IMG/VR virus record: IMGVR_UViG_2799113015_000003
Location: 1 to 64,000 of that record
From: a virus
Lineage: Duplodnaviria > Heunggongvirae > Uroviricota > Caudoviricetes
DNA: 64,000 nucleotides
Strand: one strand, 5' to 3'
Part shown: positions 9,340-15,740 of the stretch, in pieces
Numbering within the stretch: the stretch's first letter is position 1
How the letters are laid out: each line of letters begins with the position of its first letter
Program-made: the position numbers and the translations under genes
The notes under the pieces: generated by a model
Told to the model about the DNA's origin: nothing
What the model saw: the letters and a program-made list of their open reading frames with translations, nothing else
The model's database searches: none

Positions 9340-10022
9340 CAGCCAAACTCCCTTGGTACATAGACTTGGTTCTGCGGTCGGATGAAGTCCGAATCCGCTG
9401 GCGGTTGGTCAGATTCAGTGATGCGGATTAGCAGACGCCATCCACGTTCAGTAGCCTGCGACGCCTGGTGGATATTCCACCAATCCCATGAGTGCCAAAC
9501 ATCCTCTTGCGCAGTCAGTTTCCGCAGAGTTGTGCATCCATCAATCCGGCGAGTTAATTCTGAGTAGAGCTGTTCGTCTTCGTCGTGCTCAATCGGCAGG
9601 TACAGTAATCCATCAATGAACACAGTTGGGCAGTCGTTTCCAACGTGCAGCGTGTGGTAGCGCGGGTAATAGCCCTCAAGGGAACGGTAATTCTGCAGCG
9701 GAAGGGACGGCGTGCCCCAATTCGCTGGGGTCACGGTCTCGTCTGCAGCGCTGTAGCGCGGAACCCCATCGGTATGCCACCCGGGAATCGCAGGCCACCA
9801 GCCAGGCATCAGCATAGAGACCTTAGTGTCCACGAAGATGTGCTTGTGGTCCCCAACAATTGGGGCTGACTGCAGGAGTCCGCGCAAGAGTGGACCTCCA
9901 TAGAGCACAGCATTCGACAGGCTCGCGCGGCGCAGGTTCGGTGTCCCCTCGATTAGCGCGTGGTCGGATTCCGCTCTGGGCCCGATCACCACAGGGTTGC
10001 GGTTAAACCAGTAGGCGGTCAC
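9336..10022 (-). CDS. hypothetical protein, 228 aa (possible 2OG-Fe(II) oxygenase-like HxD...H)
   Basis: WHTDG followed ~45 aa later by HTLHVG resembles the HxD...H iron-binding facial triad; assignment tentative. Confidence 0.45.
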   Translation of the reverse strand: MTAYWFNRNPVVIGPRAESDHALIEGTPNLRRASLSNAVLYGGPLLRGLLQSAPIVGDHKHIFVDTKVSMLMPGWWPAIPGWHTDGVPRYSAADETVTPANWGTPSLPLQNYRSLEGYYPRYHTLHVGNDCPTVFIDGLLYLPIEHDEDEQLYSELTRRIDGCTTLRKLTAQEDVWHSWDWWNIHQASQATERGWRLLIRITESDQPPADSDFIRPQNQVYVPREFGW

Positions 10023-10333
10023 ACCAACCCCAATGCCTTCATCTCGGCGTGCGCCTCTACCACCTCACGGTCGAACCGGTCGCGGGTGTACTCGCCGCCA
10101 AGGTGGGCGATGGTGTCCTCGACCATCCGAATCCACCATTCGGCCACGCCATCAAGGCCACCCATCGTGGCGGTTTCGCCCACAAGGATGAACCACGGGT
10201 GCGCGTTGGCTTCCAGGCACTCATCGCCATACGCCATAGAGATAGGTACACCAGGCACCGAACACACTCCGAGTGCGGGCTCCTTCCCGCAGACATCACA
10301 AATCAGTTCTGGCAGTGCAGGCTTCTCACTCAT
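10019..10333 (-). CDS. hypothetical Cys-containing protein, ~104 aa
   Basis: Start set at an internal ATG giving an ATGA overlap with the stop of the Pth2 gene. Confidence 0.4.
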   Translation of the reverse strand: MSEKPALPELICDVCGKEPALGVCSVPGVPISMAYGDECLEANAHPWFILVGETATMGGLDGVAEWWIRMVEDTIAHLGGEYTRDRFDREVVEAHAEMKALGLV

Positions 10334-10683
10334 AGCAGTTTCAGCTCCCCTGTAATCGGCGCGAGTTCGTCGGCGGTCGCTGGACCAATGGCACAACAGG
10401 TAGTTGTGAGCACGCCGTGGAACTCAGTCAATCCGTTGTCAGTAATCAATGAATTCGGGATTCCGGCCTTAATTGCCTTATCCCACAGCTCAATCAGCGC
10501 ATCCTCACTCTCGACACGCACACATACCTTGGTGAAACTCCCCTGCAGCCACTCTTCAACGCGCGGATCCGAGAGGTATTCGAGCGTCGCAGCCAGCGAT
10601 GCATGCGCGCCCTGTGCGACCATCTTGCCTGCACGCATACCAAGGTCTTTACGCATGACGATCATTTGCTTCAGCTCACTCAT
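10330..10683 (-). CDS. pth2: peptidyl-tRNA hydrolase, PTH2 family
   Basis: IVMRKDLGMRAGKMVAQGAHASLAA matches the conserved PTH2 core (e.g. human PTRH2 [21 protein letters not shown]). Confidence 0.7.
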   Translation of the reverse strand: MSELKQMIVMRKDLGMRAGKMVAQGAHASLAATLEYLSDPRVEEWLQGSFTKVCVRVESEDALIELWDKAIKAGIPNSLITDNGLTEFHGVLTTTCCAIGPATADELAPITGELKLL

Positions 10684-10756
10684 CGCCGTTCACCTCCCCC
10701 ATGATCTGAGCGCCGTCGTACACGGTCACCGGGTCGTAGTCGCATGCCGAATCGCG

Positions 10757-10767
10757 GTATCCCTTCC
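10757..10767 (-). promoter_or_regulatory. start-associated motif core on the minus strand (GGAAGGGATAC) upstream of the Pth2 gene
   Basis: Reverse complement GTATCCCTTCC on the top strand; followed on the minus strand by a 21-codon mini-ORF that ends at the Pth2 ATG. Confidence 0.35.
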
Positions 10768-10812
10768 CTGGGATTACCGGGTACTTCTCGAACCAGAACC
10801 CCTCACCGGGCA

Positions 10813-12051
10813 CTAGGTTCCCTTCACATTCAGCACCTGGCGAAGCTCCGTGACAACCTCAACCAGAGGGGCGGCGTCACTCATCACGACGTCGATTGGC
10901 TTGTAGCAGGAAGGGATCTCGTCAATCCATTCCTCGCCGTGGCGGTACTCGATGCCTTGCATCTGGTCGGCCAGGTCTTCAAGGGTGAAGAGTTCCTTCG
11001 CCTTGGTGCGAGAGAATCGCCTCCCGGCACCGTGCGGTGCAGAGAACAGGCCATCCTTGTTGCCCCGACCCCGGACCACATAGGAGCGTGTCCCCATCGA
11101 GCCGGGGATAAGTCCCAGCTTCCCCTCTGACGCATCGATAGCGCCCTTCCGGGTCAGCCATACCTTCCGCCCATCGATCTCAGTCTCAACCGTGTAGTTG
11201 TGGTGACAGTTCACGCGGTCGATCTCGACGCGCTGCGCCTGCACTCCAAGCCAATTCGCGAACACCTGGACGTAGCGGTCCATCATCTCGGCACGGTTCT
11301 CGTAGGCGAACTTTTGTGCCCACTGCAGATCCTTGATGTAGCGATCGAACTCAGCGGTCCCCTCAGTGAGGTAAGCAAGATCCCGATTCGGCAAACGAAA
11401 TTGAGGAGCGGCCTCGCCTGAGCACTTCTGTAGGTACTCATAGCGCGCAACGGCTACCTTAATGTGGCGCTGAGCGATCTTGTTGCCCACGCCCCTACTT
11501 CCCGAGTGCAGGAACAGCCACACAGTGTCTTCCAGGTCGACACACAGCTCGATGAAATGGTTACCGCCACCAAGTGAGCCCAACTGCTCCATCCACTTCG
11601 GGGAGTGAGACAGGTCTACATCCAGCTCGTTCTGAAGCCGGATCAGGCCCTCAATCCGATTACGTGTGAACGGGAACCGCTTAATGTCCGAGTTATAGTT
11701 GCCTGGCGACAACGGGATTGCACCCTCGATGGCCACGCGCAAATCGGGCAGGCGGGGCATATCAGCCAACAGGGCGTCATCCATGATGTTGGCCCACTCG
11801 TAGCGGGTCTTCACCGCGATCATGCCGCAGCCGATGTCCACGCCAACAGCCGCAGGAATCACAGCCCCCACGGTGGGGATGACCGTTCCAACAGCTGAAC
11901 CCTTGCCACTGTGCGCATCAGGCATCAGCGCCATGTGCGGGTAGATGAACGGCAGCGAGGCCGTCTCCTTAGCCTGATCGATCGTCGTGTAGTCGATCTC
12001 TGAGGCGAACGAGATGATGTTGTCACCAATGCGCTGGCTCAATTCCTTCAT
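10813..12051 (-). CDS. rtcB: RtcB-family RNA ligase (3'-phosphate/5'-hydroxyl RNA ligase)
   Basis: MPDAHSGKGSAVGTV, GVDIGCGM, GGGNHFIEL and SAPHGAGR are hallmark RtcB active-site motifs. Confidence 0.9.
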   Translation of the reverse strand: MKELSQRIGDNIISFASEIDYTTIDQAKETASLPFIYPHMALMPDAHSGKGSAVGTVIPTVGAVIPAAVGVDIGCGMIAVKTRYEWANIMDDALLADMPRLPDLRVAIEGAIPLSPGNYNSDIKRFPFTRNRIEGLIRLQNELDVDLSHSPKWMEQLGSLGGGNHFIELCVDLEDTVWLFLHSGSRGVGNKIAQRHIKVAVARYEYLQKCSGEAAPQFRLPNRDLAYLTEGTAEFDRYIKDLQWAQKFAYENRAEMMDRYVQVFANWLGVQAQRVEIDRVNCHHNYTVETEIDGRKVWLTRKGAIDASEGKLGLIPGSMGTRSYVVRGRGNKDGLFSAPHGAGRRFSRTKAKELFTLEDLADQMQGIEYRHGEEWIDEIPSCYKPIDVVMSDAAPLVEVVTELRQVLNVKGT

Positions 12052-12127
12052 ATACCAATGCTATTGAGCGATTACGGGTTCATGTGGGTACGAAAAAGCC
12101 CCCAGCTTTCGCTGAGGGCTCTTCGAG

Positions 12128-12198
12128 TAGTCCATGCGGGAATCAAACCCGCACCAACACCTTGAGAGGGTGGTGTGCTCTCACTACACCAATGGACC
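12128..12198 (-). tRNA. tRNA-Glu (anticodon CTC)
   Basis: T-arm GCGGG/AATCAAA/CCCGC (reverse complement); 7-bp acceptor with G1-U72; anticodon loop CTCTCAA. Confidence 0.7.
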
Positions 12199-12204
12199 TT
12201 AGGG

Positions 12205-12543
12205 CTATTGCTCAACCCACTTGCCGGATTCACGAACCTCTGTCTTGAGGTTAACCGGCCACATATCACGCTCCACTTGGGCACGTTGTAGGTCTTCGCG
12301 GCCCACCTGACGTTTCACCCATAGCTGGAACTTTGGTGAGCTCGCCATGCGCCTGAACGCGGCCTGCTTGTTCTGCAGCTGGCTACGCTCCTCGCGCGAC
12401 TCACCCACCGCGCCAGAAGGCTCATGCGTAATCCGCACGCCCGTCTCGCGCTTGTTCTGGTTTTGACCGCCTTTGCCCCCAGATCGGAATGTGTCCACAC
12501 GACAATCCGAGAGGGTGACAGACAGTACCCGTTCTCTACTCAC
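12205..12543 (-). CDS. ArfB-like peptidyl-tRNA hydrolase (class I release-factor GGQ domain protein)
   Basis: FRSGGKGGQNQNKRETGVRITHEPSG matches the RF-1/ArfB GGQ catalytic loop (E. coli ArfB [22 protein letters not shown]); ~110 aa with a basic C-terminal tail, as in ArfB. Confidence 0.65.
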   Translation of the reverse strand: MSRERVLSVTLSDCRVDTFRSGGKGGQNQNKRETGVRITHEPSGAVGESREERSQLQNKQAAFRRMASSPKFQLWVKRQVGREDLQRAQVERDMWPVNLKTEVRESGKWVEQ

Positions 12544-12544
12544 G

Positions 12545-12618
12545 TCAAGTCGACCGGATTTGAACCGGCGTCCCCCGCCGTGACAGGGCGGTGCTTTAGA
12601 CCTCTAAGCTACGACTCG
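12545..12618 (-). tRNA. tRNA-Asp (anticodon GTC)
   Basis: Acceptor pairs 12546-52 with 12612-18; anticodon arm CCGCC/GTGACAG/GGCGG. Confidence 0.7.
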
Positions 12619-12675
12619 AAAGAACGTTTGCCCCCAGTGGTTTTCGAGGCCACCGGGGCAGGTACGAACAACCTG

Positions 12676-12750
12676 AGCCAACTTTCTGGGAATCAAACCC
12701 TGGAGCTGCTTGGCCAAAACTCCCGTGGAGACGGTGCGAATTGAACGCGA
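12676..12750 (-). tRNA. tRNA-like sequence, isotype undetermined
   Basis: T-arm-like CTGGG/AATCAAA/CCCTG at 12686-12702, but acceptor and anticodon stems could not be paired by hand. Confidence 0.3.
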
Positions 12751-12800
12751 CCACACCAATCTTGCAAGGATCGGTCGCCACCTTGGAACATGCGCCCCCA
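12726..12800 (-). tRNA. possible tRNA-Ala (anticodon TGC), poorly folding
   Basis: Anticodon arm CAATC/TTGCAAG/GATCG gives loop CTTGCAA; T-arm GTGCG/AATTGAA/CGCGA is imperfect and the acceptor was not resolved. Confidence 0.3.
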
Positions 12801-12869
12801 AGGCCCCCGTTTTGACAAGACTGGGTCTGAACTTGGACGGTTACCTCAACGGAGCCGACAACCCTGTAG

Positions 12870-12943
12870 GGCCTCATCGAGGTCTCGAACCCCGCGCCTC
12901 TTCGTTACTAAGGAAGTGCTCTAGCCGGATGAGCTAATGAGGC
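12870..12943 (-). tRNA. tRNA with anticodon AGT (Thr?)
   Basis: Perfect 7-bp acceptor 12871-77/12937-43, D-stem GCTC/GAGC and a good T-arm; anticodon loop TTAGTAA gives the unusual A34 anticodon AGU. Confidence 0.55.
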
Positions 12944-12992
12944 CTGTTGCATAGGCGTTTTGAACAGGTGCCCTTGCAAGTGGCCTGTGGCG

Positions 12993-13065
12993 TACCCAGT
13001 CGAGGAATCGAACCCCGCTTGGCTGGATGTAAGCCAGCTTTCGTCCCAGACTAACCAGGCATGAG
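12993..13065 (-). tRNA. possible tRNA-Val (anticodon TAC)
   Basis: T-arm CGAGG/AATCGAA/CCCCG and a perfect anticodon arm GCTGG/ATGTAAG/CCAGC; acceptor pairing not confirmed. Confidence 0.45.
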
Positions 13066-13943: not shown

Positions 13944-14337
13944 TGGTCGCCTCTGCTAGTCGTTTTCTGTAGTCGCGCTTACGATTTCTTGCTGCTAACC
14001 GACAGAGGCCGCAGCGGCACCCCCATCGGTCATACATTGTGCTTGTCCCATGGCGGGTTGGCCGCGTGCCATGCGTGAGCGGCATTTGGGCTGTGGTCTT
14101 GTCGCGATGACACCTCTTACAGAGGGGTTGACACTTCCTCAGCTCTGCCTGGAGTCGCGGCTCGGCCCAACTCCATATTCGGTGAGATGATTTCTCCATC
14201 GGATCGATGTGGTCGATCTCGAGTTGCTCAGTCGCACCGCAACTCACACACTTTCTGCCCTCAAAGTACCTAGCACGCCTTGCGGCCTGCCGTAGTCGTT
14301 CGTATTCTCGTCGGCGGACAGGATCTTTGATTGGCAT
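13936..14337 (-). CDS. HNH endonuclease (paralog 1) embedded in the tRNA array
   Basis: CVSCGATEQLEIDHIDP...CKRCH...GCRCGLCR HNH/zinc-finger motifs; start set at internal ATG 14337 (AGGGG RBS) because the longer ORF would overlap tRNA-Arg. Confidence 0.7.
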   Translation of the reverse strand: MPIKDPVRRREYERLRQAARRARYFEGRKCVSCGATEQLEIDHIDPMEKSSHRIWSWAEPRLQAELRKCQPLCKRCHRDKTTAQMPLTHGTRPTRHGTSTMYDRWGCRCGLCRLAARNRKRDYRKRLAEATND

Positions 14338-14920: not shown

Positions 14921-15214
14921 ATTGTTAGAGGCTGAGAGTACACCCGCTATCGAGAACCTTTCGCAGCATTATGGATTCGCTGCTTCTCCAGGCCATCCCT
15001 GACCTAGTTCTCACGCCTGGTCCGTTACCGTGAACCACTCGTTATGCCGAAAGCTACTCTGCGGCTTTCCCTTCGCGATGAGATGGCCGTCTCACTGCTG
15101 CAGTACTTGCCTACAAACCGCACTCACCTTGCGGGACTATTGTGCGGCCCAGATTCCCGAGGGTCTGGGATTAAGGCGCTTTTGCTCCTCGGCAGGGGAA
15201 GGACTTTTGCTTTT

Positions 15215-15290
15215 TATTGACGACGGGACTTGAACCCGCACATCCAGTTTCCAATAACTGGTGACCTACCGTTGGTCTACGCCATTCTCG
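15215..15290 (-). other. degenerate tRNA-like element
   Basis: Good T-arm ACGGG/ACTTGAA/CCCGC and an anticodon-like hairpin CCAGT/TTCCAATA/ACTGG with an 8-nt loop; no matching acceptor stem found. Confidence 0.25.
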
Positions 15291-15740
15291 CAGCGGAGAA
15301 TGATTTGACTAGAGACGTGCTTCCCCATGAAGTTCCGCACCCTTTTGGGGCACAGAATGCTTCACGCCTCTCGTGCTTTCGCCTGGCGGGGCTAATTACA
15401 CTCTCTCTCAACCGCATTGCGAGCCGTCGCCCGACGCGAGATCGATCATGGAACACGCCCTTGCTTGCGAGGCTCGGACTCAGTTCCTTCCGTTCCACAG
15501 GGCGCTTGTTCGATAGCCTTTTCACACGCACGTACGTGATGGTGTCCTCAGCACTTTGCCGTTGGACGGGGCGTAACTCGCAACCTGGCAGCCATCACTG
15601 ACTGCTCAAGGATTGGATTGCATGGATTGCCCTTGCGGGTGGTGGGTTGTCACCCCACCTTTCACCACCTTGCGGTGGCTTATGGGCCATGCCCCGAATG
15701 TCTTAACTATATCTCCCACAACAGAGTTCGTGTGGGTGAG

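Follow-up and report, generated by a model that had tools for sequence, protein, structure and literature searches.

How might a phage protein that carries the catalytic GGQ loop of the class I peptide chain release factors (RFs), together with little else, act on the ribosome? This question is raised by a short gene at positions 12205-12543 of a 64,000-nucleotide stretch of DNA (positions 1 to 64,000 of the IMG/VR virus record IMGVR_UViG_2799113015_000003, Caudoviricetes), which we refer to as the window and whose source is a Mycobacterium abscessus prophage of the MabI or cluster-M-like group. The gene lies within an array of transfer RNA (tRNA) genes, and an earlier note, made from the sequence alone, had proposed that it encodes an ArfB-like ribosome-rescue factor. 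In our analysis its product, which we call mini-RF, is nearer to RF1, RF2 and PrfH than to ArfB, and looks like a truncated class I release factor consisting of domain 3, helix α7 and a small C-terminal knob. We consider it probable that mini-RF is a phage-specific minimal class I release factor, one that serves as a codon-independent A-site peptidyl-tRNA hydrolase within a translation-maintenance kit.

To our knowledge, all characterised release factors that act independently of a stop codon carry a recognisable sensor. This is a basic tail in ArfB, ICT1 and PrfH-CT and a recognition domain in PrfH, while ArfA and BrfA are adaptors. The mini-RF family, which is essentially restricted to viruses and comprises at least several hundred sequence clusters, has only a catalytic domain, a spacer helix and a tiny knob, and yet is under strong purifying selection. 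Learning what mini-RF recognises would show how little a protein needs in order to bring about release in the A site, and would also reveal which damage to translation a tRNA-rich phage anticipates in the course of infection. Its relevance to practice is modest: the collection of mycobacteriophages that serves genetics and therapy includes these MabI prophages and cluster C1 phages.

A phage gene under strong purifying selection

The gene and the parts of its product are located in the window as follows.

12205-12543, minus strand: mini-RF coding sequence, 112 amino acids, with a GTG start at 12543 and a TAG stop at 12205-12207 (from the list of open reading frames (ORFs), Pfam, PHROG and the ratio of non-synonymous to synonymous substitution rates, dN/dS)
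12463-12471, minus strand: GGQ catalytic codons (G25, G26 and Q27), read directly from the sequence
12265-12381, minus strand: predicted long helix, residues 55-93 (AlphaFold model and profile alignment to Escherichia coli RF2)
12208-12264, minus strand: C-terminal knob, residues 94-112, with an MWP motif and a predicted β-hairpin; not basic

The earlier note had described a GGQ protein of about 110 residues encoded between tRNA-Glu and tRNA-Asp. Both statements hold, since the 112-residue ORF contains the GGQ codons and is flanked on the same strand by the two tRNA genes, as called by ARAGORN and Rfam. The search with the Pfam RF-1 model (PF00472) that it had suggested gave a match at E = 7.8e-19, with 68.2 bits against a cut-off of 35, which is far beyond chance. 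In addition, the PHROG 3122 profile (‘RF-1 domain peptide chain release factor’) matches residues 1-112 of mini-RF (E = 1.7e-60). The peptide FRSGGKGGQNQNKRETGVRITHEPSG corresponds to residues 19-44.

Across positions 10800-13000, the window shares 98% identity with the prophage prophiT49-2 and about 90% with prophi86-1 and prophiGD54-2. When the window was compared with five related prophages, mini-RF gave dN/dS values of 0.015-0.057; relative to prophi86-1 alone, the gene shows 30 synonymous and 2 non-synonymous differences. The mini-RF frame is a real gene under strong purifying selection.

Annotated starts differ between relatives. The prophi86-1 protein has 112 amino acids, while prophiT49-2 gp135, which is 98% identical to mini-RF and has no structural difference from it, is annotated as a protein of 97 amino acids that begins 15 codons later, at codon 16. 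Reading on from the upstream in-frame stop codon, the GTG at 12543 is the earliest start available. Because residues 4-15 are kept across the family (V9, D13 and C14 being invariant in 36 sequences), because changes in codons 2-16 are mostly synonymous, and because homology to RF1 begins at mini-RF residue 4, we take this GTG to be the true start; the conservation and synonymous evolution upstream of codon 16 argue against the shorter one. The earlier note had named the lack of a ribosome-binding site, together with a non-coding RNA inside the frame, as grounds on which to doubt expression. It is correct that no Shine-Dalgarno sequence fits, but the selection on codons 2-16 shows that the GTG is used, and an Rfam scan for a non-coding RNA in place of the protein found no RNA family within the ORF.

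Mini-RF resembles release factor domain 3 and not ArfB

When the NCBIfam release-factor models were ranked by their score for mini-RF, prfB came first (69.6 bits), followed by prfA (62.6-64.7), prfH (54.6) and ArfB (25). Every one of these models scored below its own cut-off, with the match confined to the domain-3 portion. Thus, the RF1 and RF2 models (TIGR00019 and TIGR00020) gave 62-70 bits against cut-offs of 370-423 and aligned over model positions ~209-284 only, and the PrfH model (TIGR03072) gave 54.6 bits against 166.65, over positions 105-179 of 200. The ArfB equivalog model NF006718 reached 25 bits against a cut-off of 100, over mini-RF residues 6-40 only. A single-sequence search of the PDB found RF1/RF2 domain 3 at E ~1e-13 and PrfH at 5e-8, and returned no ArfB chain at E ≤ 0.01; a profile of the family reached ArfB only at E ~5e-4, over residues 14-38. 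Foldseek searches with the predicted structure had ribosome-bound RF2 and RF1 as their best matches. Across sequence and fold, the order of matches was RF1/RF2 domain 3, PrfH, C12orf65 and then ArfB.

Mini-RF shares with RF1 and RF2 the motif pattern RxSGxGGQxxNxxxxxVRxxHxP(S/T)G. It differs from them in lacking domains 1, 2 and most of domain 4 (112 versus ~360 residues), and should therefore neither read stop codons nor bind RF3. It likewise lacks the ribosome-recognition domain that is found at the N-terminus of PrfH, a protein of ~200 amino acids. The likeness to ArfB (YaeJ) and ICT1 is that of a stand-alone GGQ protein of 110-140 residues without a codon-reading domain, for which, as for these two proteins, an action independent of stop codons can be presumed.

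An AlphaFold model built from 36 homologues (mean predicted local distance difference test score, pLDDT, of 86) predicts a three-stranded sheet bearing the GGQ loop, a helix over residues 55-93 that is kinked at 68-69, and a β-hairpin over residues 102-111. In place of the flexible linker and strongly basic C-terminal helix that characterise ArfB, the model thus predicts a helix at 70-93 followed by this hairpin. The basic ArfB-like tail claimed in the earlier note is not borne out by composition either: between positions 71 and 112 there are 9 basic and 7 acidic residues, and the final 25 residues carry a net charge of -1, with an isoelectric point of ~5, compared with 16 basic and 3 acidic residues in the tail of E. 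coli ArfB. We therefore rejected an ArfB identity, given the model score, the composition of the tail, the predicted structure and the ranking of folds; as a statement of membership it is unsupported, and as an analogy it is loose.

The family profile aligns mini-RF residues 12-103 to residues 237-327 of E. coli RF2 with a single one-residue gap (the RF2 sequence used here reproduced the coordinates and score of the PDB match 1ml5_Z). The mini-RF helix therefore has the length of RF2 α7, and this length is conserved. In the same alignment the switch loop of RF2, together with the first strand of its domain 4, is the counterpart of the knob. The switch loop of RF2 contacts A1492 at the decoding centre, where A1492 stacks on W319 (PMC5378476). 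Within the actinophage subgroup, W95 of mini-RF aligns with this switch-loop tryptophan, a correspondence that we regard as a hint of ancestry and not of mechanism. Conservation was computed over 101 representatives drawn from clusters at 50% identity. The GGQ residues are kept in 93-99% of these, and H40 and N58 in 100%; W75 and W109 are also conserved, W109 being paired in conservation with W75.

An essentially viral family

A word-indexed search returned 1642 relatives of mini-RF, nearly all of 110-125 amino acids. An exhaustive HMMER search of representatives at 50% identity gave 7192 matches at E ≤ 1e-3, of which 539 reached E ≤ 1e-10; the best 150 are mostly full-length matches of 105-160 amino acids, with a few longer proteins among them. 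Among GenBank phages there are 285 matching records, 208 of them from Mycobacterium and mostly from cluster C1 myoviruses, whose copies are annotated ‘RF-1 peptide chain release factor’. Relatives are also carried by 185 IMG/VR contigs. In a set of 185,579 species genomes, one for each species, a full-length relative was present at only ~10 loci, of which at least two are tRNA-array elements (L085, which is prophage-like, and L093, a 5-kb contig with 15 tRNAs). Given the many viral records as against these ~10 loci, the family is therefore essentially viral. Further short GGQ proteins from unrelated phages were found in BFVD (Acinetobacter phages Henu6 and 133, and Pseudomonas phage phiPsa347).

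The earlier note was right that a phage encodes a stand-alone RF-1-domain protein without codon-reading domains inside a tRNA array. It had also called such a protein unusual for a phage, which does not fit its annotation in prophiT49-2 and in about 200 mycobacteriophages. PHROG 3122, the ‘RF-1 peptide chain release factor’ of mycobacteriophages (cluster C1, some cluster M and MabI prophages), is mini-RF's own family; ‘a release factor’ has been mentioned in prophiGD54-2 (PMC8092301), and RF-1, Pth and transfer-messenger RNA (tmRNA) have been noted in mycobacterial tRNA arrays (PMC5966550). Among tRNA-rich mycobacteriophages the gene is common and has been catalogued before, and finding it is not in itself a discovery. 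As a protein, mini-RF is a distinct variant in architecture within the GGQ release-factor family, as yet uncharacterised, and its relationship to tRNA arrays is intriguing.

During this analysis we also noted an isolated 29-residue match to the C-terminal hairpin region of mini-RF, residues 82-110 (83% identity), at 69051-69134 of Mycobacterium phage Reindeer (MT658803.1), a cluster M phage without a full mini-RF gene. The match lies inside a ‘hypothetical protein’ gene and may be a remnant of mini-RF.

Genomic context of the gene

The neighbours of the mini-RF gene in the window are the following.

12544-12618, minus strand: tRNA-Asp(GTC), called by ARAGORN; the Rfam tRNA match (64.7 bits) ends at 12545
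12127-12198, minus strand: tRNA-Glu(CTC), which begins 6 nucleotides past the mini-RF stop codon
12127-17713, minus strand: phage tRNA array in which the mini-RF gene is embedded, with 21 ARAGORN tRNA calls, one of them with an unassigned anticodon
17231-17585, minus strand: tmRNA, within the array
10813-12051, minus strand: RtcB RNA ligase gene (Pfam RtcB, E = 5e-107), directly downstream on the same strand
10330-10683, minus strand: Pth2-type peptidyl-tRNA hydrolase gene (Pfam PTH2, PF01981, 110 bits)

We determined how far this arrangement extends to relatives by scoring 80 viral loci. A tRNA gene lies within 10 kb of the mini-RF gene in 49 of them, with at least 10 tRNAs in 22 and at least 15 in 17, and in 15 of the 80 a tRNA lies no more than 100 nucleotides away. 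After removal of relatives at 70% identity or above, 15 of the remaining 69 loci have at least 10 tRNAs within 10 kb. Replication or recombination genes are the neighbours at ~20 loci besides those of cluster C1. The link to tRNAs is recurrent but not universal.

An all-against-all clustering of ORFs from 90 loci revealed no consistently co-occurring protein family; only shadow ORFs, RecA/UvsX-like genes (10 loci) and replication genes (~12 loci) recurred beside the gene. A conserved protein partner was accordingly rejected. Pth2 was present in all eight MabI relatives that were fetched and has been described as core to cluster C tRNA arrays (PMC5966550). Pth2 and tmRNA co-occur in both of the mycobacteriophage lineages with mini-RF (see also PMC5966550).

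RtcB is not a conserved partner, being missing within 10 kb of the mini-RF gene in four of its eight closest relatives, near the cluster C1 gene, and in nearly all other viral loci. Against TIGR03073, the model of the PrfH-linked RtcB family, the RtcB neighbour scores 141.6 with a cut-off of 271.8. In prophage L006, whose mini-RF is 99% identical, unrelated small genes at 10420-11790 (a 99-residue ORF, a possible membrane protein and a 170-residue ORF) occupy the position that RtcB has at 10813-12051 of the window, with the flanking tRNA-Glu and Pth2 retained; this replacement is a local mosaic swap. A functional PrfH-RtcB pairing was rejected, since RtcB is swapped out in this near-identical prophage and absent elsewhere.

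A start codon at the 3' end of a tRNA

The GTG start of mini-RF directly follows the sequence CGACTTG-A-C, that is, the tRNA-Asp acceptor stem, the discriminator base (12545) and a single C (12544). Because the GTG abuts the 3' end of the tRNA, no Shine-Dalgarno sequence is possible. The same geometry, discriminator-C-ATG or discriminator-C-GTG, recurs after other tRNAs in divergent homologue loci representing four independent lineages. The start abuts tRNA-Asp in L013 (position 10001), tRNA-Leu in L037 (9998; protein 63% identical), tRNA-Ser in L079 (6342) and L082 (9995; proteins 53% identical), and a tRNA-Lys-like sequence missed by ARAGORN in L019 (10001) and L020. At the other end of the gene, the distance from the stop codon to the next tRNA is 6-7 nucleotides in the window, L018 and L023. 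In L018, a different short ORF in another frame (9925-9994) has its ATG directly at the 3' end of a tRNA-Ser, upstream of the mini-RF start.

Within the window array, a C directly follows the discriminator in 16 of the 18 tRNAs checked, and the full CCA is encoded in only 2. This C is compatible with a partly encoded CCA or with cutting by RNase E 5' of the C, the mycobacterial enzyme having been found to cut directly 5' of cytidines (PMC10641625). Because the start abuts a tRNA 3' end in four lineages, we suggest that tRNA 3'-end processing may yield a leaderless or one-nucleotide-leader mini-RF messenger RNA (mRNA). Other homologues (L093 and L023), like the HNH endonuclease gene of the window, have ordinary spacers with Shine-Dalgarno-like sequences, and a start abutting a tRNA was for this reason rejected as a universal rule.

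Proposed function of mini-RF and alternatives

As a minimal class I release factor, mini-RF would have kept the GGQ domain 3, helix α7 and a small C-terminal hairpin knob, while dispensing with the GTPase-interacting domain 1, the codon-reading domains 2 and 4, the recognition domain of PrfH and the basic tail of the ArfB type. Such a protein would most likely enter the vacant A site of ribosomes and hydrolyse the P-site peptidyl-tRNA without reading a stop codon, the helix perhaps acting as a ruler that brings the knob close to the decoding centre. Its expression would fall early in lytic growth, together with ~21 tRNAs, tmRNA and Pth2, plus RtcB in this genome. Mini-RF presumably carries out its catalysis on the ribosome, and presumably on stalled complexes of some kind; it lacks every known sensing device, be it a basic channel tail, the PrfH recognition domain or the codon-reading loops. 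Of the proposal in the earlier note that stalled ribosomes are rescued during infection, a role as a ribosomal peptidyl-tRNA hydrolase is the most reasonable part, while none of the features tested supports non-stop complexes specifically.

Several observations count against this assignment. An isolated GGQ domain normally requires a sensor domain or tail for productive binding, and the knob of mini-RF is small. Its only RF2-like residue, W95, is variable across the wider family, which led us to drop the switch-loop tryptophan as a family-wide sensor. In cluster C1 the gene sits between those for DNA polymerase III alpha and a RecA/UvsX-like protein and not among tRNAs, and the enrichment for tRNA arrays is set against a literature baseline (~2% of virus genomes have large tRNA clusters; PMC6409571) and not a matched control. 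Furthermore, a literature search found no functional, biochemical or genetic study of any family member.

The alternatives differ mainly in what the GGQ domain would be directed to. Were mini-RF a rescue factor of the ArfB type, its C-terminal tail would probe the mRNA entry channel, left empty in a ribosome that has stalled where a truncated mRNA ends (3'), before GGQ-mediated release. The similar size of these stand-alone GGQ proteins, the weak matches to ArfB over residues 6-40 and 14-38, and the tmRNA encoded by the same phage, which points to a concern with non-stop complexes, speak for such a role; given the tail and fold described above, we hold it to be improbable. The least probable of the alternatives, in our view, is a PrfH-like partnership, in which mini-RF would release peptides from ribosomes whose 16S ribosomal RNA has been cut by a ribotoxin at the decoding centre, for RtcB to religate. 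Mini-RF contains no counterpart to the PrfH domain of ~100 residues that recognises the ribosome, both it and the neighbouring RtcB score below the cut-offs of the corresponding PrfH and PrfH-linked RtcB models, and RtcB is missing from half of the eight closest prophages, where other genes take its place, is not beside the cluster C1 gene and is found at hardly any other viral locus.

Two further roles seem to us very unlikely, and to the same degree. Mini-RF might act on split subunits in the manner of mitochondrial mtRF-R (C12orf65), the third-ranked match in sequence and fold, hydrolysing peptidyl-tRNA trapped on the 50S subunit without contact with a decoding centre. No MTRES1-like partner is conserved beside the gene, and an α7 length shared with RF2 better fits a protein that spans the distance from peptidyl-transferase centre to decoding centre in the 70S ribosome. 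Alternatively, mini-RF might have no part in rescue and manipulate host translation, for example by premature release on host mRNAs, by competing with the host's RF1 and RF2 at the A site, or by titrating the GGQ methyltransferase PrmC. Its lack of a recognisable selectivity element is in keeping with this, as is its position in the early lytic region of a phage said to reprogramme translation (PMC8092301); but the near-invariant GGQ and surrounding RF motifs argue for catalysis over mere binding, and unselective release would harm phage protein synthesis too.

Returning to mini-RF as a minimal A-site release factor, a more specific version of its role can be imagined, which we think rather unlikely. 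Here mini-RF would represent a novel class of phage factors for counter-defence or rescue, releasing peptides from ribosomes that have stalled on intact mRNA with nothing in the A site, as might happen when host anticodon nucleases or tRNA-targeting toxins deplete a tRNA, and would complement the replacement tRNAs, RtcB and Pth2 of the phage. Its message would be generated by ‘tRNA punctuation’: cleavage at the 3' end of tRNA-Asp would leave a leaderless or one-nucleotide-leader GUG mRNA to be initiated directly by mycobacterial ribosomes, and a cut at the 5' end of tRNA-Glu would leave the stop codon with no more than 6 nucleotides behind it.

Other features of the tRNA array

Between tRNA-Phe and tRNA-Gln, the tRNA array contains a full-length GOLLD RNA at 14929-15372 of the window on the minus strand (Rfam RF02032; E = 2e-55, 198.7 bits with the gathering score at 150). 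It encloses an odd ‘tRNA-???’ call with a two-base anticodon at 15215-15286. At 12725-12799, again on the minus strand, a sequence differs at one aligned base from the annotated tRNA-Ala(TGC) of prophiT49-2 and has the G3:U70 pair; in the window it was called neither by ARAGORN nor by Rfam (E ≤ 0.1). The tRNA-Glu(TTC) that stands beside this tRNA-Ala in prophiT49-2 is missing from both the window and prophi86-1, leaving a gap of ~115 nucleotides. Finally, the HNH endonuclease gene (PF01844; 13936-14337, minus strand) is embedded in the array just downstream of tRNA-His. Its longest ORF extends back through tRNA-His and tRNA-Arg, and an ATG at 14337 with a GAGGG ahead of it is the probable start.
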